Assembly (NCBI GenBank): GCA_030617105.1
Contig: JAUWWC010000001.1
Span: forward strand, 4,759 to 68,758
Length of the DNA: 64,000 nt
Source of the DNA: Candidatus Nealsonbacteria bacterium
GTDB lineage: Bacteria; Patescibacteriota; Minisyncoccia; Minisyncoccales; GWA2-38-27
Reading direction: 5' to 3'
Numbering within the stretch: the stretch's first letter is position 1; every line of letters begins with the position of its first letter. A program made the position numbers and the translations under genes. Below, in pieces: positions 2,014-27,766 of the stretch. A model generated the notes under the pieces. It was not told the origin of the DNA. It did not search any database and saw only the letters and a list, made by a program, of their open reading frames with translations.

Positions 2014-2014
2014 A

Positions 2015-2269: not shown

Positions 2270-2386
2270 TTTTAATACCTCCTTTCAAAAGAACAATTTT
2301 TCATTTTTCGATACTAATATCAGTATAACAAATTAAATTATGGTTGTCAAGGGTTTAAAACAAAATTTTAGTAAAAATAGAGTAAA

Positions 2387-2429: not shown

Positions 2430-2484
2430 AATATAGTTAATCCCACCGCTCTCTCGGTTCGCCGGGACGGCGGTTTTAATTTTT

Positions 2485-2805: not shown

Positions 2806-2814
2806 TTTTTTAAT

Positions 2815-4994: not shown

Positions 4995-4998
4995 AATT

Positions 4999-6434: not shown

Positions 6435-6502
6435 TTTGTTATCATATAAATATCGTTCTTGAAAAAGTAAATACGGAAAGTTTATAAAGAAAGGAAAAAA
6501 AG

Positions 6503-6772: not shown

Positions 6773-6798
6773 AAGCTCGAGTTATAAACTTGCGCTAA

Positions 6799-6830
6799 AG
6801 TCCATTCGTTGAATGGACTTTTTTATTTTT
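6799..6830 (+). terminator. rho-independent terminator (9-bp stem AGTCCATTC/GAATGGACT + T-run)
   Basis: Stem-loop followed by TTTTTTATTTTT read directly. Confidence 0.7.
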
Positions 6831-6855
6831 GGAAATTTTGTGGTAGAATAAAACA

Positions 6856-7902: not shown

Positions 7903-7903
7903 T

Positions 7904-8614: not shown

Positions 8615-8629
8615 TTTTAAAAGAGAATT

Positions 8630-9172
8630 TTGGTACAATGTTTCATTATGAATAACATAGATTTTAATGGACATTTCTATAATCCAACTAAGGGAAGTCT
8701 ATCAGTTAAGCAAGTAATTGAAGAAATAATAGGATATATTAAGGAAAAACCAGAAAAGTTTTATGACATTATTGTTGGATGTGATTCCTCTTCAGGAGAA
8801 GAGCCGCATTTTCCAGTTGCTGTGGCGGTTTTAAGAAAGGGCGAAGGAGGAAGGTTCTTTCTTAAAAGGATAAAATATCCCCGTGCTTTTAATAGAAAGT
8901 TTATTCATTGGAAAAACAGGATTTTACAAGAAGTTCTATTATCTTGTGAATTAGCTTTGTTCTTAAGAGAAGATTTTCAAAAGAGAATTCAACAAGTAGA
9001 TGATGGAAATCTTCAATATCAATTTAGATATATTCATGCTGATATTGGTGAAAATGGTCAGACAAAAGATATGGTAAAAGAATTAACTGGCCTTATTCGA
9101 GGCAATGGCTTTGAGCCCAAGATTAAACCAGAAGCATATGTAGCGTCTGTTGTAGCAGACCGATATTCATAA
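8630..9172 (+). CDS. YkuK/DUF458-like RNase H-fold protein (alternative start at 8648)
   Basis: IVGCDSSS motif resembling DUF458 ITVGTDSQ; assignment from memory only. Confidence 0.4.
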   Translation: MVQCFIMNNIDFNGHFYNPTKGSLSVKQVIEEIIGYIKEKPEKFYDIIVGCDSSSGEEPHFPVAVAVLRKGEGGRFFLKRIKYPRAFNRKFIHWKNRILQEVLLSCELALFLREDFQKRIQQVDDGNLQYQFRYIHADIGENGQTKDMVKELTGLIRGNGFEPKIKPEAYVASVVADRYS

Positions 9173-9173
9173 T

Positions 9174-10889
9174 ATGACTTCAAAAGAGATTAGGAATAAG
9201 TTTTTGAGATTCTTTGAAAAAAAAGGGCACAAAATAGTGCCCTCGTCTTCTCTTTTGTCTACTGATCCCAGTGTTTTGTTTACTACAGCTGGCATGCAGC
9301 AGTTTAAAGAATATTTCTTAGGAGAGTCATCTCCTTATGGAAACAGAGTTACTTCTTCTCAGAAATGTTTTAGGACTTCAGATATTGAGGAAATCGGGGA
9401 TACAACTCATTTGACTTTTTTAGAAATGCTGGGCAACTTCAGCTTCGGTGATTATTTCAAAAAAGAGTCTATTGAATGGACTCTTGAATTTTTAACTAAG
9501 GTTTGCAAATTGAAAAAAGAAAAGCTTTGGATTACTGCGTTTAAGGGGGATAAAGAGGTTCCTGAAGATAAAGAATCAAGGGAAATCTGGAGAAAATTGG
9601 GATTTCCTGAAAATAGAATTTATGGATTCTCGCGCAAAGATAATTTCTGGGGACCAACTGGTGAGCAAGGGCCTTGCGGGCCGACTACTGAAATTCATTA
9701 TGATTCAACAGGAAAAAGCTGCTCTTTAGGTAAAAAATGCTTGCCAAATTGTAGGTGCGGAAGATTTGTTGAATTATGGAATTTAGTTTTTAATGAATTT
9801 TATCAGGACAAAGATAAAAAACTAACGCCTTTAAAGCAAAAAGGAGTAGATACTGGCATGGGGCTGGAGAGATTAGCCATGGTTGTTCAAAACAAAGCAT
9901 CAGTTTTTGAAACTGATTTATTTTCTTCCACGCCTCAGGCCAAGGCAGAGAGAATTATTGCTGACCATATTAAGGGGTCAGTTTTTTTAGCTTCTGAAGG
10001 CATTATTCCTTCAAATGTTGAACAAGGCTATGTTTTGAGAAGAATCTTGAGAAGGGCAATTCGCTATGGCAAGATTTTGAAAATGCCAAAGAATTTCTTA
10101 ATTCCTTTAGCTCAGAAAGTTATTGAGATTTACAAAGATGTTTACCCAGAAGTTAAATCTAAAGAAACAGATATTTTAACTATTATTCAAAATGAAGAAG
10201 AAAAGTTTGAGAAAACTTTAGAAAGGGGATTAAAAGAATTTGATAAACTAATTAGCAGGAATAAAGATATAAAAGGGGAACAGGCCTTTGACCTTTATCA
10301 GAGTTATGGATTTCCTTTGGAGCTTACTGAAGAATTAGCCAAGGAAAAAGGTTTTAAAGTAGATAAAAAAGGTTTTGAAAAAGCAATAAAGAAACATCAA
10401 GAGATTTCCAGGGCTGGCAAAGAAGCAAAGTTTGGAGGAATAGGTAAAGAGGCAGGATTGGAAGCAGCAAAGCTTCATACAGCTACTCATTTGATGCATC
10501 AGGCATTAAGAGAGGTTTTGGGTAGTCACGTTAAGCAAATGGGTTCAGATATTACTCCTAAACGTCTCCGTTTTGATTTTTCTCATTCTGCTAAAATGAC
10601 AGAGCAGGAGATTAACAAGGTTGAGAAGATTGTTAATCAGAAAATTAAACAGGATTTAGAAGTTAAAAAACAAGAAATGCTTTATTCAGATGCTATAAAA
10701 TCAGGAGCTTTGGCATTTTTCAAAGAGAAATACCCTGAAAAAGTATCGGTTTATTCTATTGGCAAGTTTTCAAAAGAAATTTGCGCTGGTTCTCATGTTA
10801 AGCGCACTTCTGAGCTTGGTAAGTTCAAAATTATTAAAGAAGAATCTTCAAGCGCCGGCATCCGCCGTCTTCGCGCTATTTTAGAATAA
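9174..10889 (+). CDS. alaS: alanyl-tRNA synthetase, short form lacking C-terminal C-Ala domain (571 aa)
   Basis: class II catalytic core, FSFGDYFK; editing-domain HxxxH (HTATHLMH) and CxxxH (CAGSH). Confidence 0.85.
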   Translation: MTSKEIRNKFLRFFEKKGHKIVPSSSLLSTDPSVLFTTAGMQQFKEYFLGESSPYGNRVTSSQKCFRTSDIEEIGDTTHLTFLEMLGNFSFGDYFKKESIEWTLEFLTKVCKLKKEKLWITAFKGDKEVPEDKESREIWRKLGFPENRIYGFSRKDNFWGPTGEQGPCGPTTEIHYDSTGKSCSLGKKCLPNCRCGRFVELWNLVFNEFYQDKDKKLTPLKQKGVDTGMGLERLAMVVQNKASVFETDLFSSTPQAKAERIIADHIKGSVFLASEGIIPSNVEQGYVLRRILRRAIRYGKILKMPKNFLIPLAQKVIEIYKDVYPEVKSKETDILTIIQNEEEKFEKTLERGLKEFDKLISRNKDIKGEQAFDLYQSYGFPLELTEELAKEKGFKVDKKGFEKAIKKHQEISRAGKEAKFGGIGKEAGLEAAKLHTATHLMHQALREVLGSHVKQMGSDITPKRLRFDFSHSAKMTEQEINKVEKIVNQKIKQDLEVKKQEMLYSDAIKSGALAFFKEKYPEKVSVYSIGKFSKEICAGSHVKRTSELGKFKIIKEESSSAGIRRLRAILE

Positions 10890-10916
10890 AAAAGAATTCT
10901 GTGGTAGAATTAACTA

Positions 10917-12047
10917 ATGAGGTTTGATTTTTTGGGGATAAGGAGAAAAAAGGAAAGACTTTTTTTGGTTTTGGATATTGGAACTGAAGCAGTAAAGGTT
11001 TTAATTTGCAGAAAGGGTAATATCAAAGTTGCTATTTTAGGAGCTGCTACTCAATATTTTAAGAGATACAGTGTTTTTAATGGGAAGATTTTTGAAGCAA
11101 ACGTAATAAAGAAAGATATTCTCAAAGCAATTGAACAGGCCCAGGCCCAGGTTCAGGCGCAAGATTTAAAGAAATTACCAGTTTTACTTACTCTAAGCCC
11201 TAATATTCTAAAAGCAAGAGTTAATGGGCAGTCATTTATACAGGATGAAGGCTTGAAGATAAAAATTTCTAAAGCAAAAGAAAAAGCTATTCTCCAGCAG
11301 GTTCTTAAAAAAGCGCAGCAAGAAATTTCTCAAAGATTTAGCAGAGAATTTGGTATTTTAGCAAAAGATATTCACTGGATTAGTTTGAAAATTCTTGAAA
11401 TGAAAATTGATGGCTATCCAGTTTCAAGATTATGCGGATATAATGGGAAGGATTTAGAATTTAGGATCTTGGCTACTTTTTTGTTGAAACACTATCTCAA
11501 AAGCATAAAAAGAATTCTTGAAGATTTAGGATTAAAGATTTCTAAAATAGTTCATTTAGCTGAAAGCCTGCCTATCGCATTAGGAGGTAAGGCAGGGGAT
11601 GGTATTTTCTTTGATATTGGCGGAGAGGCCAGTCAAATTATTTTAGTAAAAGGAGGTAATTTGAAAAAGGTTAGTGAGCTAGGGGTTGGAGGAAAAGCAT
11701 TTTCCCAAAAACTATCTCAATCTTTGGGAATTGATGAGCAATCAGCAAGGATTCTTAAAGAAAGATACGCTAATAAAGTTTTAAGCGGGGAAGTTGGACA
11801 AAGAATTAAAGAGATACTTTTATCAGAGAAGCGAACTTGGCAGCAGGATTTAGAAATGAAGATTAAAGGAATAAATTCATCAAATATTCAGATTTTTGGT
11901 GGATCCAGCTTGCTTCCAGAAATTCAAGAGGTCTTGCCAGGAGCCAAGATTATTTATCCCCAAGATTTTAAAAACATTAAAGACGAAACAAAGAGTTTAA
12001 AAAATCCTCAATATATTCCATCTTTATTCATTTGCTATTATGGGTAA
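10917..12047 (+). CDS. actin-fold ATPase of the FtsA/PilM family
   Basis: LVLDIGTEAVKV and FFDIGGEASQ phosphate-binding motifs of FtsA/PilM; no ftsZ adjacent. Confidence 0.5.
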   Translation: MRFDFLGIRRKKERLFLVLDIGTEAVKVLICRKGNIKVAILGAATQYFKRYSVFNGKIFEANVIKKDILKAIEQAQAQVQAQDLKKLPVLLTLSPNILKARVNGQSFIQDEGLKIKISKAKEKAILQQVLKKAQQEISQRFSREFGILAKDIHWISLKILEMKIDGYPVSRLCGYNGKDLEFRILATFLLKHYLKSIKRILEDLGLKISKIVHLAESLPIALGGKAGDGIFFDIGGEASQIILVKGGNLKKVSELGVGGKAFSQKLSQSLGIDEQSARILKERYANKVLSGEVGQRIKEILLSEKRTWQQDLEMKIKGINSSNIQIFGGSSLLPEIQEVLPGAKIIYPQDFKNIKDETKSLKNPQYIPSLFICYYG

Positions 12048-13284
12048 GAAATTTTTTGACATAATTCCTCCAGAAGAAATTGATTCTTTAGGGAGTAAAA
12101 AACAACAAGAAAAGACAGTGCTAGTTGGGAAAAAGAAAGGATTTTTTCTAAAGAGTTTACTTTTTTGTTTGGTTCTTTTAGTCCTAATAGCAGTTTCAGG
12201 GTTTTTCTTTTTTTCTAAAGTAGAAATTGAGATTTGGCCAAAAACAGATATTTTATCTTTAGAAGAAAATCTTGTTATAGATTTGAATGCAGAGACGTTT
12301 AATTTTAGTGAAAAAATTATTCCAGGCAAGATTTTTATTAATGAGAAATCTGCTTCTCAAGAATTTCCTGCTTCAGGCAGAGTTTTAAAAAAAGAAAAAG
12401 CCACAGGAGTTATCCGAGTTTACAATGCTTATTCTACTTCTGCCAGGACTCTAATACCTTCTCGGTTTGTTTCTGCTGATGGCAAGTTATTCTGGTCTGT
12501 TAAAAGAATAACAATTCCAGGGGCAAGATATGAAAAAGGAAAACTTATTCCTGGTGAGATTGATGTTGAGGTTAAAGCAGCTGAACCAGGAGAAGATTAC
12601 AACATTGGTCCTTCTACTTTTGCTCTTCCTGCCTTAGCTGGCTCTCCGTTATACACCACTATTTATGGAAGGTCATTTTCAGATATGGCCGGAGGCTTTA
12701 TAGACGAAGTTCCCCAGATTAGCCAGGAGGATTTGGAAAAAGCTGAGAATATTTTAATTGAAGAATTAAAAAAAGAAAGCAGAGAGTTTTTCAAAACAAC
12801 TATTCCTAGAGATTTTGTTTTGTTAGATGAAACAATCTCTCAAGAGATTATAGAAACTAATAGCTCTTTGCAAGCAGGAACTGAGGCTGAGTCATTTGTG
12901 TTTCAAGTTAAGATTAAATCAGAAGGAGTTGGCTTTAAAAAATCAAATCTAGAGGATTTTGCTAAAGGTTGTATTAATTTGAATATATCAGAAGGTACAA
13001 GGATTCAGGAAGAGAGTTTAGAAATCAATCATTTTATTTTAGAGCAGAAGATTGATGAAGAGGGTAAAATTGTTTTAAATTTAGAGATTAAAAGCAAAGT
13101 TTATTCAGATATTGATTTAGATAAAGTTAAAAAAGCTCTTTTAGGAAAGTCGCTTAAAGAGGCCAGGATATTTTTAGAAAATCTTCCTGAAGTAACTAAA
13201 ATTGAGCTTAAATCTTGGCCATTCTTAAAGAAGAAAATTCCAGAGGATATGGAAAAGCTTGAGATAAAGCTAAGGATTGACTAA
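12040..13284 (+). CDS. membrane-anchored hypothetical protein (N-terminal cytoplasmic tail, one TM, ~350-aa external domain), translationally coupled to the FtsA/PilM-like gene
   Basis: 8-nt overlap with upstream gene; single TM at aa about 40-60; possible PilN/PilO-like or FtsQ-like role is inference. Confidence 0.5.
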   Translation: MGKKFFDIIPPEEIDSLGSKKQQEKTVLVGKKKGFFLKSLLFCLVLLVLIAVSGFFFFSKVEIEIWPKTDILSLEENLVIDLNAETFNFSEKIIPGKIFINEKSASQEFPASGRVLKKEKATGVIRVYNAYSTSARTLIPSRFVSADGKLFWSVKRITIPGARYEKGKLIPGEIDVEVKAAEPGEDYNIGPSTFALPALAGSPLYTTIYGRSFSDMAGGFIDEVPQISQEDLEKAENILIEELKKESREFFKTTIPRDFVLLDETISQEIIETNSSLQAGTEAESFVFQVKIKSEGVGFKKSNLEDFAKGCINLNISEGTRIQEESLEINHFILEQKIDEEGKIVLNLEIKSKVYSDIDLDKVKKALLGKSLKEARIFLENLPEVTKIELKSWPFLKKKIPEDMEKLEIKLRID

Positions 13285-16032: not shown

Positions 16033-16380
16033 ATGCGGAAACTTAAACAAGGCAGAAAATTATCAAGAAAAAGAAATCAGCGGAAAGCTCTGTTAAAATC
16101 TTTAGCACAAGCCCTTTTTTTACATAACAAGATAAAAACTAGTGAGGCAAAAGCCAAAGAGCTTTCCAGGTTTGCTGAGAAATGCATAACCCGAGCAAAG
16201 AAAGGAGATTTGAATTCCAGAAGAATCTTAGCAAAGTATTTCTCAAAAGATTTAGTCAAAAGATTGATTGATGAGATTGGACCAAAGTATAAGAATAGAA
16301 AAGGGGGATATACAAGAATTATTAAATTGGGTCCTAGAAAAAGTGATGGTGCCAGGATAGCGATAATAGAATTAGTATGA
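16033..16380 (+). CDS. rplQ: 50S ribosomal protein L17
   Basis: L17 signature; after rpoA. Confidence 0.85.
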
Positions 16381-16724
16381 AAAGAGAAACTCATACAATT
16401 GATGCTAGCGGCAAGATTTTGGGCCGTTTCGCTACTGAAATTGCTGTTTTGCTTCGCGGCAAAAACAAACCCGATTTTATTCCTAACAAAGACATGGGTG
16501 ATTTTGTAGTTGTTAAAAATATTAATAAGATTGAAGTCACTGGCAAGAAACTTGAGAAGAAAATTTATTATCATCACTCTGGATATTTAGGAGGATTGAA
16601 AGAAACCCCATTGAAGAAACTTTTTGAGAAAGATCCAGGAGAGGTTTTAAAAAGAGCAGTTTTCGGCATGCTGCCTAAGAATAAGTTACGAGCTAAGCAA
16701 ATTAAAAGATTAAAGTTTGAATAA
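16377..16724 (+). CDS. rplM: 50S ribosomal protein L13
   Basis: [22 protein letters not shown]. Confidence 0.85.
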
Positions 16725-17200
16725 TGGAAAAAGCTAAAAAAACTAAAACAAAAAAGAAGACAAGTAGTAAAAAGAAAGTTGAGAAACGCAAAAAGCCAAG
16801 AGCTAAACCAGCTAAGTATTTTGAAGCAGTTGGCAGGAGAAAAACATCTGTGGCTCGGGTTCGGCTTTTTACTCAGGGAGATAAAACAATTATGATTAAT
16901 GGAAAATCGTATAAAGAATATTTTCCTGGTTTAGAGCTTCAGCAGATTGTAGATACTGCTTTAGATAAAATGAAAGCTCTTGATAAGTTTATGGTTTCAG
17001 CTAAGGTAAAAGGGGGAGGAGTTCATTCTCAAGCTGAAGCTGTTAGGCATGGAATTTCCAGGGCTCTTGTGAAGTTTAATCCTGAGTTTCGCAAACGGCT
17101 TAGGCGAGCTGGATATTTAACCCGTGATCCCAGAATGCGGGAAAGAAAGAAATTCGGATTAAAGCGCGCCCGCAGAGGCCCGCAATGGTCTAAGAGATAA
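16724..17200 (+). CDS. rpsI: 30S ribosomal protein S9 with ~30-aa Lys-rich N-terminal extension
   Basis: AVGRRKTSVARV...RDPRMRERKK...; K-rich N-terminus. Confidence 0.85.
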   Translation: MEKAKKTKTKKKTSSKKKVEKRKKPRAKPAKYFEAVGRRKTSVARVRLFTQGDKTIMINGKSYKEYFPGLELQQIVDTALDKMKALDKFMVSAKVKGGGVHSQAEAVRHGISRALVKFNPEFRKRLRRAGYLTRDPRMRERKKFGLKRARRGPQWSKR

Positions 17201-17206
17201 TAAAAA

Positions 17207-17240
17207 ATCCCTCTGAAAATCAGGGGGATTTTTGCTTTTT
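17207..17240 (+). terminator. rho-independent terminator after rpsI
   Basis: TCCCTCTG...CAGGGGGA stem followed by TTTTTGCTTTTTT. Confidence 0.6.
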
Positions 17241-17252
17241 TACTGCTTTTTA

Positions 17253-17615
17253 CTACTCTCTGTTGAATTTATATTTGATTTTGCATTGTTGGGCTCTAAA
17301 ACGATTTAGATGTTTAAATCCTGCAGGTAAATCTGATTCCAGTGTTTCTCCATTGAAGCTTAAATCAACAGGATATATACAAGCGACTTCCCAAGTTTTT
17401 GCTTGTGGGTTCTCTTGTACACAGAAAGAAAGATTGTGTTTTTGGCCCAAATCAAGAATCAGAACAGATACATCAACTACACCTTCACAACGTTTCATCG
17501 TTCTAATATTGAGCCCTTTTTTACAAGGAAGGCCAACTTGATGAGCAAATTGAAGTGCGAAGTCAACAGCTGTTAGATCTATTGCCATAACATCGGTGTT
17601 TCTAATAGAATTCAT
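17253..17615 (-). CDS. hypothetical protein (120 aa), start MNSIRNTDV with strong SD AGGAGGTG
   Basis: ORF plus canonical RBS 5 nt upstream; no family recognised. Confidence 0.5.
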   Translation of the reverse strand: MNSIRNTDVMAIDLTAVDFALQFAHQVGLPCKKGLNIRTMKRCEGVVDVSVLILDLGQKHNLSFCVQENPQAKTWEVACIYPVDLSFNGETLESDLPAGFKHLNRFRAQQCKIKYKFNRE

Positions 17616-17725
17616 TTTACACCTCCTGGGCATCACGCCCAATTTACTGCCATCACGGCAGAAAGGTTAATAATGTGGTTTGAAACGAACTAATACTACT
17701 TACAGTATACACCCATATTTAGTTT

Positions 17726-17778
17726 TTGTCAAGAGCTGGTGCTGGGGATTTGACCTTTGTTTATAAATAGATTAAAAT
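17726..17778. promoter_or_regulatory. divergent promoter pair with palindromic -35s (TTGTCAA...TTGACC); plus-strand -10 TAAAAT 17773-17778 gives near-leaderless start for the Cas4-like gene; minus-strand TTGACA-N17-TATACT for the 120-aa gene
   Basis: Hexamers and spacing read directly. Confidence 0.45.
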
Positions 17779-17786
17779 GATATTGT

Positions 17787-18470
17787 ATGTTAAAAGAAAT
17801 TATTGATAAATATTATTTGGATAGGCAGAGGAATAAAGAACAGCGTCATTTTTATATCAGTGACGCTGGCAAGTGTTCTCGGGCAGTGTTTTTTAAATTT
17901 AAAAACGCTCCCAGAAAAGAAATGGGAGCAAATATCTTGAGATTATTTGATCATGGAGACCATATGCACAAGCTTATAATGAAGTCTTTATTAAGCACTA
18001 GAGATATTCATGTCGTGGCTTCTGAAGTAAATATTGCTCCACAAGAGATAATTTCAGGCAGAGCCGACGCCATAATTAGTGATGGAAAGCAACTCTATGT
18101 TTTAGACATTAAAAGCATGAATAGTATGATTTTCAGAAATTTGATACAGGCAAAAGAGGAAAACGTTGAGCAGCTTCAATTATACTTGCATTATTTTAAA
18201 ATACCTAAGGGAATCCTGCTTTATGTTGATAAAGATAAGTTAGAGCTGAAAGAGTTTATAGTAAGCTATAATCAAATCCAAGCAGAAAGTCTTTTGAAAC
18301 AGTTAACTGTTCTTAAAAAACAAATTGATTCTAACACTATTCCTTCACGTCTTGCCGATTATCCAGATGGTTGGCAGTGTAATTATTGCCAGTTTAGAGA
18401 AATCTGTGATATGGGAGCTCCAGATGAAATGAAATGGGACGATTTTAAACAAAAAATAGAGTCTCAATAA
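17787..18470 (+). CDS. Cas4-like / RecB-family PD-(D/E)xK nuclease with 4-Cys Fe-S cluster signature (DUF83-like), stand-alone
   Basis: N-terminal Cys (SDAGKCSR), GRADAII (motif II), VLDIKS (D-x-K), QLQLY (QxxxY), C-terminal CNYCQFREIC (Cx2Cx5C). Confidence 0.6.
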   Translation: MLKEIIDKYYLDRQRNKEQRHFYISDAGKCSRAVFFKFKNAPRKEMGANILRLFDHGDHMHKLIMKSLLSTRDIHVVASEVNIAPQEIISGRADAIISDGKQLYVLDIKSMNSMIFRNLIQAKEENVEQLQLYLHYFKIPKGILLYVDKDKLELKEFIVSYNQIQAESLLKQLTVLKKQIDSNTIPSRLADYPDGWQCNYCQFREICDMGAPDEMKWDDFKQKIESQ

Positions 18471-18660: not shown

Positions 18661-19623
18661 ATGGAAAAAAGAATAATGGCAAGAAATATTGCATGGTTTT
18701 GTGTTTTGCTTGCTGTATTAGGTAGTTTGATTTGGTTCAATAATCTTAGTATAGCTTTGCAATGGAATCCAAAAGCAGGTCATGGATTTGAATATCATGG
18801 TCCAATCTCTTATTTTGATCGTTTTGCAGTAGATTTTTCTACAGTTAGCACTCTTGTACCTTTTTTTGGGATGTGCCTTATTGCAAGAGGATTTTTCAGT
18901 ATTGCTAAAGCCAAAGAAAAGACTAATTGTTCAAAGGTCTTTCCATTTTTTGTGAATTACGAACGTATTATGGTTGCCTTAGGATTGATGGGAACGGTCT
19001 GGGGGCTTATTATGATTGGGTATTACCCATCTGAACAAGTCCAAATGTCACAGTTGATAAATTGTTTGAGAACCGCTCTTTATTCAACTTTAATTGCCTT
19101 GATTTGGGTGTTTCTTATTGTTATACCACTTAGATATAGTATGCAGCGAGCTTATAGAAGTATTTCTGGTTACCAGGTCTTAAAACCTAATGAGACTATT
19201 ATTTCCCTTTTAGGAGACCTCAGTTCAGCAGCTTCAGGCCTTACTGAGACCATAAATGAAACCAGTAGTACTTTTAGCCAGCTTAAGAATGAAGTCTCAG
19301 GAGCTAAAAAGGAATTTCAAGAAGTTGATAAGTTGATAGCAGAGATCAAAGGTAAGGCTGAAGGTGTATTTGATAAAGCTCAGGAGTCCTTTAACCAGAT
19401 AAGTTCTGGATCTCGGGCTTGGCAGCGAGCTGCAGAAAAACAGCAAAAAGCTGCTGAGGCGCAAGAAGCATTTTTCCAGCAATTAACCAATGAGTTGGAC
19501 AAAGTAATAAAAGAAAGGGATGAATTAAAAGGAAAATTAGACCAAACAAAACAAGAATTAGTTGAAGTAAAAAGCAAATTCCGTAGATTAAGGGATTTTG
19601 TTAGAGGAATAGTTGGAAAATAG
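18661..19623 (+). CDS. MotA/TolQ/ExbB-family proton-channel protein with ~165-aa C-terminal coiled-coil tail
   Basis: 4 hydrophobic segments; ALGLMGTVWGLIMIG matches TolQ/ExbB G-L-x-G-T-V-W-G signature; following TM resembles TolQ TM3; heptad-rich K/E tail. Confidence 0.6.
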   Translation: MEKRIMARNIAWFCVLLAVLGSLIWFNNLSIALQWNPKAGHGFEYHGPISYFDRFAVDFSTVSTLVPFFGMCLIARGFFSIAKAKEKTNCSKVFPFFVNYERIMVALGLMGTVWGLIMIGYYPSEQVQMSQLINCLRTALYSTLIALIWVFLIVIPLRYSMQRAYRSISGYQVLKPNETIISLLGDLSSAASGLTETINETSSTFSQLKNEVSGAKKEFQEVDKLIAEIKGKAEGVFDKAQESFNQISSGSRAWQRAAEKQQKAAEAQEAFFQQLTNELDKVIKERDELKGKLDQTKQELVEVKSKFRRLRDFVRGIVGK

Positions 19624-19636
19624 AAAGGAGCAAAAA

Positions 19637-20503
19637 ATGGAAGATTTATTAGAACGGGTAGGAACACTTTTTGGTGCTGAAAAAGAGGAAGAAGTGTCTA
19701 CGGCTGAAACTTTTGAGTTATTGTGTCAGATTGCTTTGGCTCTACTAATAATCTTTGTTATGGCTAATACTATTTTTAGAGGTAGAGCTCAGGCACAGAT
19801 TGATGAAAGTAGAGGTAGGCAAGGTGTTCTTGAAGATGAAAATAGAAGATTTAGACAAGCAGATCCAAATATTGCAAGCTATGAGAGAGCAATGATGGAT
19901 GTACAAAAACAGAAGCTTCTTTTGGCATTAGAAAAGATTGAAAATACCCTTCGTGATGATTTCGGGATTGATCATTTTGCACCAAAAGATCGCAGTACTC
20001 ATGAAAGTAAGTATTTAATGAACGATCTTCTTTCAGGGGAAAAAGTAATTAATGAGCGGTTTAAACAAGCTTGTATTATTGCTAAACAAGTTTTCTTAGA
20101 CAGAAAAAAATTGCGACAGAACTGGTGTGATAGGATACCTTTGGTTGAGCCAGGATTAGTATTTGATAGTACTCCAGAAAAACAATCAATTATTACAAAC
20201 CCTGAAGTTATAAGTCCGGAAAATGAAATATTGGTATTTCAGGAGATTGCTAATAGAATAGAAGGGATATATGCTGATTGTTGCGATATGCAGCGCATGG
20301 CCCTTTCTTATCTGCAGGAGTATTATTATGAACATACAGAATTACTAAAAGGAACTGAATTTGATAAGAACTTAAATAATGATGTATCTTCAGCATCAGA
20401 CAAGGAAAAACGAAGACTTATGTTGCAACGTAGTCAAGAATTGTATATGTATATAAAATCACTTTTTGAAAAACAGAATGTACCACTGCTTAGCGGAGTT
20501 TAA
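19637..20503 (+). CDS. single-pass membrane protein (N-in, TM aa about 25-45, ~240-aa C-terminal domain), candidate TolR/ExbD/MotB-like partner of the upstream channel
   Basis: Start at ATG 19637 with AAAGGAG SD, abutting stop of upstream gene; TM lacks canonical Asp but is preceded by Glu; topology only. Confidence 0.45.
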   Translation: MEDLLERVGTLFGAEKEEEVSTAETFELLCQIALALLIIFVMANTIFRGRAQAQIDESRGRQGVLEDENRRFRQADPNIASYERAMMDVQKQKLLLALEKIENTLRDDFGIDHFAPKDRSTHESKYLMNDLLSGEKVINERFKQACIIAKQVFLDRKKLRQNWCDRIPLVEPGLVFDSTPEKQSIITNPEVISPENEILVFQEIANRIEGIYADCCDMQRMALSYLQEYYYEHTELLKGTEFDKNLNNDVSSASDKEKRRLMLQRSQELYMYIKSLFEKQNVPLLSGV

Positions 20504-20536
20504 GCACGACGGTCATTAAGAAAGGAAGGTGCAAGA

Positions 20537-22885
20537 ATGAGATCCGCAAGAAAAAAACCTGTTATTACAATAGCTTTGTTTGTAGTTATCAGCGCCTTGC
20601 TCCCTGGAAGATTTTGCCTAGGGAGCAAGGGCGAATTATCAGCAAAAAAAGCTAATGCAAGATTGTATGCTAAGATGCATATTAATAAACTTTGCGAGCA
20701 AGCAAGAAAACAAGAAGTTGATGTTAATGATCTCTGTGAGAAAATGCTGCAGAATCCAGCTAAATATCAAAACAGAAGACAGGCCTGGGATAACTTAAAG
20801 CAGGAACAAACTCAGATGTTTACTGATTGGTATCAAAAGGAAGTGAAACTTGTTTTACAGGCAATTGACCGGAACTACTTTACTAAAGAAGAGCGAGATG
20901 CTTTTCTAAAACCTCTAGACGAAGTAGTTAAGGACTATCTTGATAAGAATTTTGGCAAAAGCCATACAGATGGAACAACAGTATTTGGCAAAGCAAGAAA
21001 AAAAGCTTATGAAAGCCAACTCAATAAGCTGACAAAAGATGTTTATCCCACAGAAAGCGAAGTTGATACAGCTGTGGCTAAAAGACAGCTCAATAACTTG
21101 CGGATTAAAATATTGAATCAGCTTATTAAAAAACAAAAAGAACCTGTTTTTTCAGAAAATGTAAGTACGCTTAGCAGCGATTTCGTTAATCCCATACTTG
21201 ACGATGCTAAAAAGCAATTAGAAAAACAAGGTTCAATTGTGACCGGTTCTTCTGGCGCTAGTTATGTTGTGCCGGAAGATATCAGGAATTTCATCAGCAG
21301 GGAGATTACTACTTATCAGAACAAGCTTAAGCAGGAAAAGCAGGGAAAAACAATAGCCAATAAGGTCTATAAGATGTTTCCTTCAGTTAAGAAGAAAGTT
21401 GATGATGAGGCAGGCAAAATCGCTATCAAAAGATTTCGCAATGCTATATCTGAAATGAATTTGTCAGTTGACAAGAAGGTTTTAAAAAAGCTGATAAGCG
21501 GGAGCTTATCAGTTCATGCTGACAAAGATAAAAGCTGGAGCACTTGCTTGAAACGTTTTCGACAAGATATTGTTAACAAAGCCATTGATAATCATGCAGT
21601 CAAGGCTCCAAAAGACAAACAATCTGATTTTCGCAACTTTCTGTCATCACTTATTTCAAACAGTGATCAATCTTGCAAAGATGCTATGAATAAACTGGTT
21701 GATAGAAGCTTGAAGCAGGAGTTTGATCGTATACGAAAAGAGATTGCTCAGCAGCAATTCAGAGATTTCTTTGGACCGCTTGAACAAGGTTCTTGGCCTT
21801 CTTCAGAAAAAGCAGATGAGCTGATTGACAAATGGTACAATAAATCAGTGAACATATCTGAATCTGAAGCTTTGAAAATGCCTGATGTTTCATCAAGGTC
21901 CTTTAATTCTAAAGACCTGCTTAAAGAGACCATTGAAATGGTTCGCGAAGCAGAAGAAGCAGGAATAAAAACAGGACTTGATGCTCTGAGGAGCCAGATG
22001 AGCACGGTTGAGAGACTTGAGTTTCAAGTCAAGAGCCAAATTAGAAATATGAGAGATCTCACTATTGAGAAGGTTATAGAGATTTACACACAAAAAGTAA
22101 ATTCATCTTGGTCTTCCAAGGATTATCCCCATCTTTTTACCCGAACTCAAAAGGAAATTAAAAGGCGAGCTAAGGATATTTTAGATTTAGAGATTGCTCG
22201 TCAGCGTCAGATTGCTAATGACAAAGCTAAAGCTGATAAAGCTCGAGCCGATGCTAAAGCCAGAGCTCAGCTTGAAGATAAAGGCAGGTCTGACATACTT
22301 GGCTTGGAAGATTCTGACAAGCCAGGAAAACCAGGTGGAGGAGGAGATCCTAATAAGTCAGGAAAACCAGGTGGTGGCACGCCTGATACTTTTGGCGGTC
22401 CTCCGGGGGGAAAAGGACCTGCAAAAGAACAAGAGGAACCGGGGGATCAAATGCCAGATGTTATTCTTGATTTTGGCTACGAAAGTGGAAAAGTTTATGC
22501 TGACATAATGTTTCCCAAAGAATCAAAAGACAAGCTTAGACTTTTTATGGATCTCAGTGTCAACCTTAATTCGTCTAACATGGTTATTGCTCGAAAGCTT
22601 TTTGCTGATTGGCTTAAAGACGCTGTCAAGAAAAGCAAAAAAGACCAGCAAGACATAAATTTCTATGTTTTTGCCCGAGTTTTTCACGGAAGTTCTGTGT
22701 TATACAGCATGGTTTATTATTTCAGAGAGTGCTTGATAAAAGCTTTAGAAGATACTGGTGATAAAAGAATAAAAATTCACTGGTATGACAGGCTTTTTTA
22801 TGGTTCTTCTGATATTGAGAAATACAGGGGTAAGCCTATTTTGCCTCCTAAGTTTGATAAAAAACTTATGCCGAGATTGGTATAA
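20537..22885 (+). CDS. large membrane-anchored or secreted protein with TolA/TonB-like architecture: N-terminal signal/anchor, ~600-aa K/E/A-rich alpha-helical region, Gly/Pro-rich spacer, ~150-aa C-terminal globular domain
   Basis: N-terminal hydrophobic segment; ANDKAKADKARADAKARAQ helical repeats; KPGKPGGGGDPNKSGKPGGGTPDTFGGPPGGKGP spacer. Confidence 0.5.
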   Translation: MRSARKKPVITIALFVVISALLPGRFCLGSKGELSAKKANARLYAKMHINKLCEQARKQEVDVNDLCEKMLQNPAKYQNRRQAWDNLKQEQTQMFTDWYQKEVKLVLQAIDRNYFTKEERDAFLKPLDEVVKDYLDKNFGKSHTDGTTVFGKARKKAYESQLNKLTKDVYPTESEVDTAVAKRQLNNLRIKILNQLIKKQKEPVFSENVSTLSSDFVNPILDDAKKQLEKQGSIVTGSSGASYVVPEDIRNFISREITTYQNKLKQEKQGKTIANKVYKMFPSVKKKVDDEAGKIAIKRFRNAISEMNLSVDKKVLKKLISGSLSVHADKDKSWSTCLKRFRQDIVNKAIDNHAVKAPKDKQSDFRNFLSSLISNSDQSCKDAMNKLVDRSLKQEFDRIRKEIAQQQFRDFFGPLEQGSWPSSEKADELIDKWYNKSVNISESEALKMPDVSSRSFNSKDLLKETIEMVREAEEAGIKTGLDALRSQMSTVERLEFQVKSQIRNMRDLTIEKVIEIYTQKVNSSWSSKDYPHLFTRTQKEIKRRAKDILDLEIARQRQIANDKAKADKARADAKARAQLEDKGRSDILGLEDSDKPGKPGGGGDPNKSGKPGGGTPDTFGGPPGGKGPAKEQEEPGDQMPDVILDFGYESGKVYADIMFPKESKDKLRLFMDLSVNLNSSNMVIARKLFADWLKDAVKKSKKDQQDINFYVFARVFHGSSVLYSMVYYFRECLIKALEDTGDKRIKIHWYDRLFYGSSDIEKYRGKPILPPKFDKKLMPRLV

Positions 22886-22890
22886 ATTCA

Positions 22891-22930
22891 AGGAGCTAAC
22901 TCTTAAAATAAGAGTTAAGCTCCTTTTTTC
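22891..22930 (+). terminator. rho-independent terminator (13-bp stem GGAGCTAACTCTT/AAGAGTTAAGCTCC + T-run)
   Basis: Read directly after stop at 22885. Confidence 0.7.
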
Positions 22931-23017
22931 TTGACAAAGTTATTTATAGGATGTTTAATGCAATAGAGGCAAGAAGGTCTTGTCTTTAGCACTTTAACAA
23001 TTGAAAGGAGACAGAAA
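22931..23017 (+). promoter_or_regulatory. conserved promoter + 5'-UTR hairpin element, copy 2 (TTGACA 22931-22936; hairpin GCAAGA-AGG-TCTTGT 22969-22983; AATTGAAAGGAG)
   Basis: Aligned by eye with copies 1 and 3. Confidence 0.5.
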
Positions 23018-24655
23018 ATGAATAAAAGAATTTTCTTGATAATTGTTATACTTTTTCAGATAGGAAAAGTTAGTGTAGCTAATTATCCGCCAAGAGTTAA
23101 AATTCAGAATCCAACAAGTGGTTCAAAATTTAAACTTGACGAAGAAATTGTTTTTAGAGGAATTGCAGTTGATTTAGAAGATGGAGAATTACCAGAAAAA
23201 AATCTTACTTGGACATCTGATTTAGATATTTATATTGGTCAAGGTAATTCATTGACCTATAAGGGTCTTTCAGTTGGTCCTCATATTGTTATGTTAACAG
23301 CATTTGATTCAGAGGGTTCTGTAGGCAGAGATTCAGTTTTTATTACAATACAAGACCCTAAGATCACTAAACCTATTGTTAAGAAACCCAAAAAGGAACC
23401 TAAAACTGGACCTGAAGGACCTAAACTTGAAGAGCTTGAACCAGGGGCGCCATCTATTGAATTTCTTTTTGTGCCTTCTTTTCGCAGTTTCGAAGATCTT
23501 ACAGGCAGAGTATTGAGTGCTGACCCTAATAATTTTGCTGTTGCTGTTTATATTATGAAAGATGGTCTTTGGTGGAGTAAGCGGGTAGGCAAGATTAATA
23601 GAGAGGGCAGATGGATTTGTGATATTACGACAGCTGAACGTGATGAAGTAGCGCTTAAAATCCTTGTCTATCTTGTTCCAAGCGATTTTAAACCCCCGTT
23701 AGCTTCTGGCAATTTTCAGCTTTCTCATGAATTAGAGAAAAATAGTGTAGCAAAAATAGAAGTACTTCGGAAAATAAGAATGCCCAAGGTAACGTTACAG
23801 TCAAAAAGGGAGCCAGAAATCAAGAAGATCCGCAAAAAGCCAGAACCTAAAGGTCCAATAGAGGCATTGGGAGAGCTTTTGATTCGGTTGCTGCCTAAAG
23901 AAAAGCAAACAACAGAGACTCTGAAAAGATATCTCCCTTTAGCAGTTGGCAACAAATGGACCTATCAGAGAACCGTTTACAAGAGCGATGAAGTTTTTCA
24001 TTACAGAAAGCAAATTATTGAGAAACCTGGCTGGAATAGTCCCCCTCGAGGAGCTGTCTATTTTACCCTCGGCCGGACAATAGAAAAGATGCCCCAGAGT
24101 TCTCTAGAGACATATAGCATTTCTAATTCTACTCTAACAGACAAATTTGCATCCTGGGACGTAGAAATTGAAGGGACTATTCCTAGAGATGGAAGATACT
24201 CCTCACTTTATATTAAAGAGGAGCCAAATGTTAAATGGCTTTATGTTGATGGAGGTGTTTGGGAACTAATGCAAGGTGAATATTTAGGCGCTGAGACCAT
24301 AAGTCAGACTTGGCTAGCGGTCTTAGAGCCAGGGATAATAATTTCTGACTCAGCAAAAGAAGGGGAGATACCTTTCTGGGCAATAGGAGCAGTTTTAATC
24401 CCAGAAAAAATCACTACCCCGGCTGGAAAATTCTCAAGCTGCTTGAAGAATTGCACTATGATTAGAGGTCAAAATTTGAAAGAAGTATTATTAAAAGATA
24501 TGCCTCCTGAGTATTCAGAACAGGAAGATGGTTTTGGAAACTTCACGACCATATCTTTTTATGCGGAAGATGTTGGCTTGATCAAAGAGGTTCAGTATAA
24601 CTCCAAAGGGGAACTTGTATATGAATTAGCGTTAATCGAATATAAGGTAAATTGA
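23018..24655 (+). CDS. secreted multi-domain protein (signal peptide; Ig-like N-domain; domain shared with the GH17-like protein; C-terminal domain shared with the downstream paralog)
   Basis: RGRVLSADPNNFAVAVYIM...WICDITT aligns with 25865 product; PLAVGNKWTY and YELAL motifs align with 24778 product. Confidence 0.55.
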   Translation: MNKRIFLIIVILFQIGKVSVANYPPRVKIQNPTSGSKFKLDEEIVFRGIAVDLEDGELPEKNLTWTSDLDIYIGQGNSLTYKGLSVGPHIVMLTAFDSEGSVGRDSVFITIQDPKITKPIVKKPKKEPKTGPEGPKLEELEPGAPSIEFLFVPSFRSFEDLTGRVLSADPNNFAVAVYIMKDGLWWSKRVGKINREGRWICDITTAERDEVALKILVYLVPSDFKPPLASGNFQLSHELEKNSVAKIEVLRKIRMPKVTLQSKREPEIKKIRKKPEPKGPIEALGELLIRLLPKEKQTTETLKRYLPLAVGNKWTYQRTVYKSDEVFHYRKQIIEKPGWNSPPRGAVYFTLGRTIEKMPQSSLETYSISNSTLTDKFASWDVEIEGTIPRDGRYSSLYIKEEPNVKWLYVDGGVWELMQGEYLGAETISQTWLAVLEPGIIISDSAKEGEIPFWAIGAVLIPEKITTPAGKFSSCLKNCTMIRGQNLKEVLLKDMPPEYSEQEDGFGNFTTISFYAEDVGLIKEVQYNSKGELVYELALIEYKVN

Positions 24656-24777
24656 AAGGAGCGGAAAATGATTAAGAGAATTTTTCAAAAGAAAGGAGGA
24701 TTGAAACGAAAAGGATTGTAATTGTTTTAGAGAAATAGAAACAGAAACCCTTTAGGAAAACATGAAAGGAGAAAAAA

Positions 24778-25731
24778 ATGAAGACTCTACTAAAAAATGT
24801 AAAGTTAGTTATTTTGGTTGTTTTTGTGGCTCTGGCTTCTTTATTCTTTTTTGAAAGAAAGCCTAGTGAGGCTTCTAACCAGCCAACTGAGATCAGGATG
24901 AAAGAGCGAAAGACAGTAGAGAAAGCTACCACTACTGAAAATTTTATCCCCGGTACCTATGATCCAAGATTACTTATGCCCCTAGCTCTTGGAAATAGCT
25001 GGACCTACGGTTGGAAAAGTGCTGCTGTATCGACCTTAAAAGAAGTAGAATCCAAAGATAAGGCAATTTTTAGGGGTCTAAGCTGGTACTCATTTGGTGG
25101 AAAGAGTGTGCTGGCCAGATGCTATGGCTATAAAGCAAAAGCCCATAAGGAAACTTACACCCTTATCCGACAGGATGGCGATCACTATTTCTTTACTATT
25201 TCTATTGATCCCAAGGTACCTTCAGAACAGATACGCGATGGCAGATTTGAAGATTCTGTTGAGAATTGCTGGACCTGGTGGGACCTTAGGCAAGGCTCTT
25301 ACGGTTCAATGGGAATGACTGAGTCCATAAAACGGAATTGGGGTATCCATAGAGATTATCTTCTTGGCAAACAAGCTGAATTGCCAGATGATTTTCCAGC
25401 AGACCACCGCAACGCTATTCACATTGAGTTTACAGAAGGTGAGTGGGGCGATAGTTGGTTGGAATTTGCTTATTCTAAAAATCCCTGTAGATATGTATAC
25501 AAAACCATGGGTAATGAAGTTAAGGTAGCTGCTGGAACATTCAAAAACTGTATTGAAGCGATTGAGAAGGTTCATAAGGATGCCGAAGAGAAAAGCCCCC
25601 TGGTCTGGGAGACCCATATATTCTGGGCTCCTGAGGTAGGCAAGGTCTGGGAATACCAGAGGCTTGCTGATGGTACCATAACCTATGAGTTGGAGCTCCT
25701 AAAATTTGTTCCAGCCCAAAAGAAAAAATAG
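24778..25731 (+). CDS. secreted protein, paralog of the C-terminal domain of the 23018 product
   Basis: Signal/TM at N-terminus; PLALGNSWTY...YELEL shared motifs. Confidence 0.55.
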   Translation: MKTLLKNVKLVILVVFVALASLFFFERKPSEASNQPTEIRMKERKTVEKATTTENFIPGTYDPRLLMPLALGNSWTYGWKSAAVSTLKEVESKDKAIFRGLSWYSFGGKSVLARCYGYKAKAHKETYTLIRQDGDHYFFTISIDPKVPSEQIRDGRFEDSVENCWTWWDLRQGSYGSMGMTESIKRNWGIHRDYLLGKQAELPDDFPADHRNAIHIEFTEGEWGDSWLEFAYSKNPCRYVYKTMGNEVKVAAGTFKNCIEAIEKVHKDAEEKSPLVWETHIFWAPEVGKVWEYQRLADGTITYELELLKFVPAQKKK

Positions 25732-25740
25732 GCAAAATAG

Positions 25741-25776
25741 GTGTCAGATTTATTTTCTGGCACCTCTTTTTTTCGC
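25741..25776 (+). terminator. rho-independent terminator (GGTGTCAG...CTGGCACC stem with one G-U, then T9)
   Basis: Read directly. Confidence 0.6.
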
Positions 25777-25864
25777 TTGACAAAGCATTGATAAGATATA
25801 TGCTATAAAAGAGAGATAAGGCGGTCTTATCTCAAGATTAAGAACCTTAAAAATTGAAAGGAGA
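25777..25864 (+). promoter_or_regulatory. conserved promoter + 5'-UTR hairpin element, copy 3 (TTGACA 25777-25782; hairpin GAGATAAG-GCGGT-CTTATCTC 25813-25833; AATTGAAAGGAG)
   Basis: Aligned by eye with copies 1 and 2. Confidence 0.5.
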
Positions 25865-27766
25865 TTGAAAATGGAAAAGAGAGTCTTTTTAATGATTGTT
25901 ACGATAGTGTTAGTTTTGAATTATTTTGTTCCTGTTGTATGTGGAGCAGAATCTGTGCCTGCAATCGGGCTCACTTATGTGCCGAAATATGGCAGTACTG
26001 AGAACTTGCGAGGCAGAGTATTAAATGCCAATTCTAAAGATTTTGCTGTTGCTGTTTATATTATGGTAGATCGTTTTTGGTGGACCAAGCCTTATTGGGA
26101 CAGCCCGATAACAGAAATTAATGATGATGGAACCTGGGTTTGTGATATTACCACTGGCGGTATTGACGAGACCGCCACCAGGATTGCTGCTTATCTTATT
26201 CCAGCTGATTACAAGCCTTCTTTGATCAGCTGGAATTTTCAGCTTCCTCAAGATCTGGAAGAGAAAGCTTTAGCAAAAGCAGAGGCAAGGCGGGATGTAT
26301 TAGGCAAAGTGTCGATAATACCTAGAGTTGAAGCAGAGTCCAAGATAGATATCAGGGAAAGAGATGTTGATAAACTGAAAGGTGTATGTTACGGACCTTT
26401 TCGTGATAATGAGAATCCTGATATGGGCATCCTTCCGTTTCTTGATGAGTTGAATCCTGATATTGGGTTTATTCCCAAGGTAGCCAGGGCAATTAGGACA
26501 TATGGTTGTACCAATACGCTTGGTAATATTCCTGCATTGTGCGAGAAAATTGCTATAGACTGCTATCCCGGGGCTTGGCTTGGTAAGTACAAAGCAGAAA
26601 ATAGAGAAGAAATTGAAAGTTTCATCCAGATTGCTAATCAGAACCTCAATTGTGTTAAAGCTCTAATTGTGGGAAATGAGGTTCTGCTGAGAGAAGATAT
26701 GACCGGGGAAGAGTTGATTTTCTACATCAGGGAACTGAAAAAAACAGGAGTTCCTGTGACAACCGCAGACATATGGAGAGTTTGGCTCATGCACCCAGAG
26801 CTTGCCGATGAGGTTGACTTTTTAATGGTTCATATCCATCCCTACTGGGAAGGAATATCAATAGGGGATGCTGCAAATTATGTTATACAGCGCTGGAATG
26901 CCATGAAGAAACGTTTTCCCGGCAAAAGGATTGTGATAGGTGAAACAGGATGGCCCTCTGAAGGTAAAACAATAGGTAAAGCCATAGCCAGTCCAGAAAA
27001 CCAGGCAAGATTTTTTAAAGAGTTTACTCAGTTAGCTGAAAAGGAACGGATTGAATACTTCTATTTTGAGCTATTTGATGAACTCTGGAAAGATAAATTT
27101 GAAGGTAAAGCTGGAGCTCATTGGGGGATCTACAATTCAGATGGTTCATTAAAAGATCATATGAAAGATCTGATTCCTACCCAAGCCCTCGAAGGGATTA
27201 GCCGGCCTCTAAGAGAAGTTGCTAAAGTTAAGGTCAGTGCTCCTCTTATTGTTTACAGGGATGCTGGTTCAGAAGAAAATAGCTTCCAGCCATCGGGTTG
27301 GATGGGTGATAGCGAGTGCATAGATTTGGACAAGGCCTGTGAGATAAACCCTTATGCTGGTAAGACCTGTATCCGTATTAGCTTCAAAGCTGCTCGATTC
27401 CTCTCCTGGGGTTGGGCTAGTATTTATTGGCAGTATCCTTTAAACAACTGGGGTAAATATCCTGGCTATGAGCTGTCAGGAGCTAACAAGCTTAGCTTCT
27501 GGGCTCGAGGCGAGAAAGGCAATGAAAAAGCAGAGTTTAAGACAGGAGGGATTAGGAGTTGGGTTCCAACAGAGTTCCGTCGCGATTCCTTTGGTCCTGT
27601 CTCTACTGGCGTCATGAAACTTACTCCAGAATGGAAAAAATATATCATTGACCTAAAAGGTAAAGACATGAGTAGTGTGATTGGCGGCTTTTGCTGGACA
27701 ACTAATCGTTGGTGGAATCCCAAAGGTTGCACGATTTACTTAGATGATATTCAGTTTGAACCATAA
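25865..27766 (+). CDS. secreted glycoside hydrolase family 17-like (beta-1,3-glucanase-like) protein with N-terminal domain paralogous to the 23018 product and a ~200-aa C-terminal probable carbohydrate-binding domain
   Basis: KGVCYGPF, LIVGNEVLL (acid/base Glu) and IGETGWPSEG (nucleophile Glu) GH17 motifs; signal peptide. Confidence 0.6.
   Translation: MKMEKRVFLMIVTIVLVLNYFVPVVCGAESVPAIGLTYVPKYGSTENLRGRVLNANSKDFAVAVYIMVDRFWWTKPYWDSPITEINDDGTWVCDITTGGIDETATRIAAYLIPADYKPSLISWNFQLPQDLEEKALAKAEARRDVLGKVSIIPRVEAESKIDIRERDVDKLKGVCYGPFRDNENPDMGILPFLDELNPDIGFIPKVARAIRTYGCTNTLGNIPALCEKIAIDCYPGAWLGKYKAENREEIESFIQIANQNLNCVKALIVGNEVLLREDMTGEELIFYIRELKKTGVPVTTADIWRVWLMHPELADEVDFLMVHIHPYWEGISIGDAANYVIQRWNAMKKRFPGKRIVIGETGWPSEGKTIGKAIASPENQARFFKEFTQLAEKERIEYFYFELFDELWKDKFEGKAGAHWGIYNSDGSLKDHMKDLIPTQALEGISRPLREVAKVKVSAPLIVYRDAGSEENSFQPSGWMGDSECIDLDKACEINPYAGKTCIRISFKAARFLSWGWASIYWQYPLNNWGKYPGYELSGANKLSFWARGEKGNEKAEFKTGGIRSWVPTEFRRDSFGPVSTGVMKLTPEWKKYIIDLKGKDMSSVIGGFCWTTNRWWNPKGCTIYLDDIQFEP

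Follow-up and report, generated by a model that had tools for sequence, protein, structure and literature searches.

The 64,000-nucleotide (nt) stretch analysed here (contig JAUWWC010000001.1 of the Candidatus Nealsonbacteria assembly GCA_030617105.1, positions 4,759 to 68,758, in the following called the window) encodes a stand-alone (solo) Cas4-family PD-(D/E)xK nuclease with a predicted Fe-S cluster, and in Nealsonbacteria-like Parcubacteria its gene is a core gene at the tail of the rplM-rpsI ribosomal-protein operon. With moderate confidence we regard the protein as a vertically inherited core nuclease that would serve constitutive DNA-end processing for genome maintenance. The kind is already known, solo-Cas4 having been reported from Parcubacteria before (PMC5704561); what we did not find described are the fixed position at the operon tail, the conservation at the level of ribosomal proteins and an exchange of the allele in situ. 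The gene and its motifs are located as follows.

17787..18470, plus strand: solo Cas4-family nuclease gene with ATG start, 227 amino acids (aa) and stop codon (open reading frame (ORF), profile matches, PDB entry 4IC1, AlphaFold2 (AF2) model and Foldseek).

17874..17876, plus strand: Cys30 codon, N-terminal ligand of the predicted [4Fe-4S] cluster (86/86 homologues; aligned to the N-terminal Cys of SSO0001).

17967..18185, plus strand: catalytic core H61, E80, D94, D107-x-K109 and Q129xxxY133 (4IC1 alignment, conservation in homologue alignments).

18378..18407, plus strand: C198-x2-C201-x5-C207, predicted C-terminal Fe-S cluster cysteines (86/86 homologues; aligned to CxxCx5C of SSO0001).

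In the original prediction, made from the letters of the window, the gene was named a solo Cas4-like Fe-S nuclease on the grounds of an N-terminal Cys, G-x-x-D, D-x-K, QxxxY and Cx2Cx5C in this order. These motifs were confirmed by the translation, where they appear in the context G57-D-H-M-H61, G91-R-A-D94, D107-I-K109 and Q129-L-Q-L-Y133, and by an HMMER alignment to the Cas4 protein SSO0001 (4IC1), which is the sole solved structure matched by sequence (E 8e-10). In this alignment H61 stands opposite the metal-ligand His of SSO0001, D94, D107 and K109 together with H61 take the positions of its metal site, and Q129xxxY133 falls on the QhxxY motif of RecB.

The profile search that had been proposed was passed, barely for Cas_Cas4 (PF01930; 22.9 bits, cut-off 22.7) and more clearly for PDDEXK_1 (PF12705; 31.3 bits, cut-off 22). 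Matches were also obtained with the PADLOC Cas4 models (best 1.2e-12) and with the PHROG families 'Cas4-domain exonuclease' (8e-28) and 'CRISPR/Cas system associated' (3e-27; PHROG 1990, 1706). The equivalog model TIGR00372 for CRISPR Cas4 gave 41.4 bits, under its trusted cut-off of 65, so that the protein is not classed with CAS-Cas4, the form associated with CRISPR. An AF2 model computed from 61 diverse homologues reached a predicted local distance difference test (pLDDT) score of 96.2 and a predicted TM-score (pTM) of 0.90; an earlier model from 22 close homologues was discarded (pLDDT 60.7, below 50 in the N-terminal 92 residues). When the model was compared with the PDB by Foldseek, the top four matches were chains of 4IC1 (E 2.5e-11 to 1e-9, TM 0.6-0.67), followed by type I-C Cas4, MGME1, ACE1, lambda exonuclease, AdnAB and EXO5. 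RecB motifs, four cysteines, a profile score above the cut-off and a Cas4 fold thus place the protein in the Cas4 family in the broad sense, and the first assignment is borne out by profiles, the 4IC1 match, the fold and the absence of CRISPR-Cas from its context in the window.

A fragment of a RecB/AddB helicase-nuclease, which had been named as the finding that would overturn this assignment, was rejected: all 120 homologues listed are stand-alone proteins of 226-250 aa, the full-length protein (about 227-235 aa) occurs in more than 200 species, and no helicase is found among the neighbours. In public annotation, relatives carry the name 'PD-(D/E)XK nuclease family protein' or 'Dna2/Cas4 domain-containing protein'. 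Assemblies under the labels Patescibacteria, Parcubacteria, Nealsonbacteria and Gribaldobacteria are the source of the exact protein and of homologues with 70-88% identity. Many of the metagenome-assembled genomes (MAGs) with homologues are titled 'Saccharibacteria', a label that we took as generic because their loci are collinear with Nealsonbacteria loci.

No CRISPR-like array was detected in the 64-kb window by Tandem Repeats Finder (TRF) and a direct-repeat scan, and no match to cas1 or cas2 was found among the ORFs scanned, with positions 1..13284 judged from synteny only. The earlier statement that the window has no array, cas1 or cas2 therefore holds in full for the array and, for the two genes, within this scope. 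The neighbours of the nuclease gene are rpsI and housekeeping or island genes, not cas genes.

The position of the gene was compared across relatives. A scan with one genome per species yielded 210 genomes that encode a relative, of which 80 loci were fetched, and the window proteins were compared by tblastn with 81 non-redundant loci from about 80 species of Nealsonbacteria-like Parcubacteria (single loci are given below as L with a number). Neighbour counts were limited to loci with enough flanking sequence, 70 upstream and 66 downstream. The two conserved neighbours are found in the window at these positions.

16377..17200, plus strand: rplM-rpsI, conserved upstream neighbours (tblastn of related loci).

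27847..29118, minus strand: gene for a PEGA/beta-propeller-like envelope protein, convergent downstream neighbour (weak Pfam matches).

The rpsI gene lies upstream on the same strand in 68/70 loci, with an operon-like gap to the nuclease gene (median about 60 nt, in many cases about 4 nt). Immediately downstream, 65 of the 66 loci have the PEGA-like gene on the minus strand, frequently with an overlap between the 3' ends of the two genes; in the window, these genes are parted by an inserted cassette. As a rule, infA-rpmJ-rpsM-rpsK-rpsD-rpoA-rplQ-rplM-rpsI are followed by the Cas4-like gene, by the PEGA-like gene (minus strand) and by (murA)-mreB-holB-frr. This places the nuclease gene beside highly expressed genes. 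In a relative at 46% identity the link to rpsI is gone and the neighbours PEGA-like gene, mreB, holB and frr are retained, which indicates that the core position is old. For the more distant Cas4-like representatives P0125 and P0131 the contigs were too short for reading the context. In L009, L021, L037, L044, L051 and L075 a 3-methyladenine DNA glycosylase gene (Pur_DNA_glyco) lies directly 3' of the nuclease gene on the same strand, a weak hint of a link to DNA repair.

The protein is also conserved like the products of the operon to which its gene is attached. Compared across the loci, the Cas4-like nuclease reaches a median identity of 69.5% with the window protein, next to 69.6% for rplM, 67.9% for rplQ, 65.6% for rpsI and 62.6% for murA, with the PEGA-like gene and holB at about 45%. 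The ratio of nonsynonymous to synonymous substitution rates (dN/dS) of the nuclease gene is 0.04-0.13 in pairwise comparisons, inside the range of the ribosomal-protein genes, and 0.29 in one very close pair. C30, D94, D/E107, K109, Q129, Y133, C198, C201 and C207 are kept in 86/86 sequences, position 107 being Asp in 82 and Glu in four of them, and the same residues are invariant or nearly so in relatives down to about 25% identity. This pattern of constraint fits a housekeeping enzyme and not a defence-island gene. The original placement among accessory or defence-island genes is thus contradicted by the fixed core position in 81 loci, by purifying selection like that on ribosomal proteins and by the TIGR00372 score of 41 versus 65 bits.

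One departure from this picture was observed in L058 and L062, which by their flanking genes are the closest relatives of the window. The flanks share 84-87% DNA identity with the window, whereas the nuclease gene (compared with window positions 17786..18457) shares 72% DNA and 65% protein identity, and in the L062 comparison its synonymous divergence (dS) is 1.79 versus 0.36-1.09 for the neighbouring genes. The breakpoints in identity fall on the two ends of the nuclease gene. The alleles fall into a clade A with the window, L003, L005 and L092 and a clade B with L058, L062, L064, L067 and L049; the clustering of the window allele with L003, L005 and L092 agrees with how far its own flanks have diverged. 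Each of the two alleles is fully intact, and the constraint on them is equal. This looks like an allele replacement in situ by recombination, most likely in the lineage of L058 and L062.

In the window the nuclease gene is followed by an insertion.

18661..27766: inserted cassette of six genes, about 9.3 kb, between the nuclease gene and the PEGA-like gene.

The cassette encodes a MotA/ExbB-like protein of 320 aa with a coiled-coil tail, a protein of 296 aa in which a hydrophobic segment probably spans the membrane, a coiled-coil protein of 782 aa rich in Gly and Pro, and three further proteins of 545 aa, 317 aa and 633 aa, the last with a Glyco_hydro_17 (GH17) domain. Towards the right of the island (about 24-28 kb) the G+C content rises to 0.40-0.42, versus about 0.35 in the backbone. 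When the six genes were searched by tblastn in the related Cas4-like loci, 0/81 carried any of them, and L092, with a nuclease 83% identical to that of the window, lacks the cassette. The MotA-like protein has 35 homologues among 5.8 billion proteins, at best 48% identical. Homologues of the first three genes (MotA-like, 296-aa and 782-aa protein) recur together on three unrelated contigs (L089-L091), one of them from a Brocadiaceae MAG, and a GH17-like gene is present on two of the three. On none of these three contigs was a Cas4-like gene found within 9 kb upstream or within the 3.5-9 kb of contig available downstream. Since no related locus has the cassette and no cassette contig a Cas4-like gene, the cassette is a rare, lineage-specific insertion beside a core gene. 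The search for co-occurrence with the MotA-like genes in relatives, which the original prediction had proposed, therefore speaks against its idea that the nuclease is an effector of the adjacent module. Its description of the gene as sitting at the edge of an accessory island is literally correct, while membership in the island is not: the nuclease gene belongs to the conserved flank.

In a PADLOC search of the island proteins, the MotA-like protein gave a weak match to ZorA2 (2.3e-6), and the only further matches were generic coiled-coil ones to SMC-like models. A Zorya call for the island was rejected, the weak ZorA2 match not being enough. The cassette looks more like an envelope or surface machine than like a nuclease-based defence system. 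A different insertion of about 8 kb was seen at the same site between the Cas4-like and PEGA-like genes in L072 (CP179887.1, 10681..18733); judged by sequence and without a family search, it encodes what seem to be NifB/NifX-like proteins along with MinD-type ATPases that carry ferredoxin inserts. This may be a hotspot for insertions.

The upstream side of the gene in the window likewise differs from the common arrangement. Three features were located there.

17203..17233, plus strand: terminator-like hairpin after rpsI, with a 14-bp stem followed by a T-run.

17253..17615, minus strand: small gene of about 120 aa without family match, preceded by an AGGAGG Shine-Dalgarno sequence.

17750..17778, plus strand: putative promoter of the nuclease gene, TTGACC-17-TAAAAT (sigma70-like consensus scan, 10/12 matches).

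The hairpin would uncouple the nuclease gene from the ribosomal operon in the window genome. The small gene, located between rpsI and the nuclease gene, was found elsewhere only in L058 and L092. Its near-consensus promoter (TTGACA-17-TATACT, 17732..17704, minus strand) is divergent from that of the nuclease gene. Between the end of the putative nuclease promoter and the ATG there are 8 nt, without a visible Shine-Dalgarno sequence; in L058 both hexamers and their spacing are kept, with a distance to the ATG of 6 nt. A leaderless or near-leaderless nuclease mRNA, as first suggested, is thus plausible, the promoter being a consensus match. The insertion of the divergent small gene and the rpsI terminator would then have given the nuclease its own, probably near-leaderless, promoter in the window genome. 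The 5' leader of the small gene (82 nt; region 17253..17745, minus strand) is about 93% identical to that of L058 and better conserved than the coding part. Within it are two hairpins of 5 bp whose 5-nt loops are identical (GGGC-GUGAU-GCCC and CUGCC-GUGAU-GGCAG, minus strand), and one stem shows a compensatory change from G-C to A-T in L058. These hairpins could be an operator or an RNA regulatory element. An Rfam search of 17180..17820 gave nothing near any gathering score.

We favour constitutive DNA-end processing as the role of the nuclease because of its ribosomal-protein-like conservation and its fixed operon position. By analogy with SSO0001 and the solo-Cas4 of Methanosarcina mazei, the enzyme would be a Mn2+/Mg2+-dependent nuclease that degrades or resects DNA ends, probably as a large oligomer. 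It would be expressed constitutively alongside the translation apparatus and would supply RecA-type repair with recombinogenic ends and/or remove or recycle linear DNA. The setting would be a lineage that is reported to be without RecBCD and mostly without CRISPR-Cas: bacteria that belong to the CPR (Candidate Phyla Radiation) may lack RecBCD, as stated indirectly in PMC6509639, and CRISPR-Cas is rare in them.

Several points weigh against this proposal. The repair role is suggested by homology and gene position, and the position in a ribosomal-protein operon could instead hint at an RNA-related role. The metal-ligand candidate H61 is kept in 80/86 sequences and replaced by Q or P in the other six, and the glycosylase neighbour is present in only 6 of about 66 loci. 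In the two nearest relatives an in-situ replacement of the allele has occurred, so that inheritance is not strictly vertical. Finally, the absence of CRISPR-Cas was observed within the 64-kb window, and the lack of RecBCD is taken from the literature on the lineage.

The main rival to the repair reading is degradation of foreign or imported DNA, in which case the protein would be an innate defence or DNA-scavenging nuclease that degrades incoming linear phage, plasmid or taken-up DNA, possibly also feeding nucleotide salvage. The closest profiles are indeed those of phage and defence-type Cas4-like exonucleases (PHROG 1990 and 1706, PADLOC Cas4), other Cas4-family proteins are defensive, for example ACE1 with prokaryotic Argonaute (pAgo; PMC12094033), and CPR bacteria are mostly without CRISPR-Cas. 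The discordant in-situ allele in the two nearest relatives (65% aa identity, dS 1.79) and the two insertions next to the gene, in the window and in L072, point in the same direction. However, the nuclease matches ribosomal proteins in dN/dS and identity, nothing points to an arms race, the constraint on the two alleles is the same, the core operon is fixed in nearly all species, and there is no partner gene for self/non-self distinction. We therefore consider a defence or scavenging function possible but doubtful. Part of the same profile evidence would also suit a Cas4-like recombination exonuclease borne by a prophage or another mobile genetic element, since PHROG families are the best profile matches and homologues are encoded in 172 phage records. 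This is the most improbable of the explanations: the phage homologues are at most 28% identical, no phage genes surround the nuclease gene, and its chromosomal synteny is conserved.

The remaining two alternatives tie the nuclease to a larger system. It is very unlikely that it was left over from a CRISPR-Cas adaptation module that has decayed, or that it acts in trans as the Cas4 of a CRISPR locus at another place in the genome. Homology to Cas4 would allow it, and a type V system with cas4-cas1-cas2 is present in at least one Nealsonbacteria genome (bioRxiv 10.1101/2022.04.20.488981), but the TIGR00372 score is 41 versus 65 bits, the same non-CRISPR neighbourhood recurs across 81 loci, and the window is free of arrays. 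Moreover, CRISPR-Cas is reported in about 2.4% of Parcubacteria and Microgenomates, whereas the nuclease gene is found in 210 species genomes, and solo-Cas4 branches are distinct from CAS-Cas4 (PMC5704561). Still less credit can be given to the nuclease as effector of the adjacent MotA-like, Zorya-like accessory module, in spite of its place next to the nuclease gene on the same strand, at a distance of 190 nt, and of the weak ZorA2 match of 2.3e-6. Zorya systems use nuclease effectors. Against such a role, however, stand the 81 loci without any of the six island genes, the 83% identical nuclease of L092 without a cassette, the cassette on three unrelated contigs with no Cas4-like match in the available flanks, and the raised G+C content, which marks an insertion between genes that are adjacent elsewhere.

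Among cas-like genes, solo-Cas4 is the most frequent kind in CPR bacteria and DPANN archaea, which are mostly free of CRISPR-Cas. That one large Parcubacteria subfamily is core, conserved like ribosomal proteins and attached to rplM-rpsI argues for housekeeping DNA processing over a defence-island role, and offers biochemistry a well-defined family to target. A tempting mis-annotation is corrected as well: a 'Cas4 next to a MotA-like module' is here not a new defence system. A stronger version of the proposal, in which the protein is an essential, constitutive genome-maintenance nuclease of Parcubacteria that is co-transcribed with ribosomal proteins and replaces RecBCD/AddAB resection or feeds salvage from imported DNA, is speculative and rather unlikely. 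If it were true, the solo-Cas4 proteins in which CPR and DPANN genomes are enriched would for the first time have a defined physiological role, and the in-situ allele swapping would hint at an additional role in self/non-self discrimination.

Three other features of the window were recorded. A group I intron (Rfam RF00028, 84 bits) is located at 38938..39124 inside a tRNA gene (38913..~39175). ARAGORN with intron search did not call the split tRNA, and a call was obtained only after in-silico removal of the intron; the anticodon is Leu or Phe, depending on the exact splice sites. At 53068..54693 (plus strand) a ThyX (Thy1) homologue of 541 aa is encoded, which is about twice the usual length of ThyX. 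Matches fall in two stretches, with the best in its C-terminal half, and the protein may be a duplicated or fused ThyX. The ORF of a DnaE-type polymerase (61822..63840, minus strand) starts at position 89 of the DNA_pol3_alpha profile, with the N-terminal PHP part outside the ORF, which may reflect a split gene, an intein, a frameshift or an assembly issue.

Among known systems, the nuclease domains of RecB, AddB and AdnAB and the phage Cas4-like and lambda-type exonucleases share the PD-(D/E)xK fold with the window protein and belong to systems that act in DNA-end resection. AddB, like Cas4, carries an Fe-S cluster-binding module (PMC5704561). In contrast to these, the window gene has no fused or adjacent helicase or recombinase partner, and its phage relatives are, as stated above, distant in sequence.

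SSO0001 of Sulfolobus solfataricus has the same His/Asp/Asp(Glu)-x-Lys metal site, QxxxY motif and 1+3 Cys cluster as the window protein (residue roles as summarised in PMC13621843), and a toroidal structure according to the title of Lemak et al. 2013 as cited there. The two are about 25% identical, and SSO0001 is CRISPR-associated, whereas the window gene has no cas neighbours. The solo-Cas4 of Methanosarcina mazei Go1 is an oligomeric [4Fe-4S] protein and a Mn/Mg-dependent dsDNA nuclease; its complex has about 318 kDa, and its substrates are linear dsDNA, which is cut, and supercoiled DNA, which is nicked (PMC12501428). As a solo Cas4-family protein with four conserved cysteines, it can serve as a working model for the activity of the window protein. 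It is archaeal, however, and a heading in PMC12501428 describes it as having no RecB motif; by this description it is set apart from the window protein with its full D...D-x-K...QxxxY.

The closest likeness is to the solo-Cas4 of CPR and DPANN genomes, where these genes are over-represented, predominantly vertical and under moderate to strong purifying selection, and for which 'uncharacterized defense or repair functions' were proposed (Hudaiberdiev et al. 2017, PMC5704561). Here too, a stand-alone Cas4-family gene lies outside a cas locus in a CPR bacterium with a small genome. Unlike in that account, the window gene is fixed after rplM-rpsI and conserved like ribosomal proteins; as to such a context of solo-Cas4, the word 'ribosomal' does not occur in the main text of PMC5704561. 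With 31 bits for PF12705 over 23 for PF01930, the window protein leans to the former and stands at the border of the 'Cas4' and 'Cas4-like' sets of that paper. Located outside cas loci and mobile elements, with conserved synteny in 81 loci, dN/dS of 0.04-0.13 and one allele swap, the nuclease best fits the solo-Cas4 class reported from CPR bacteria.

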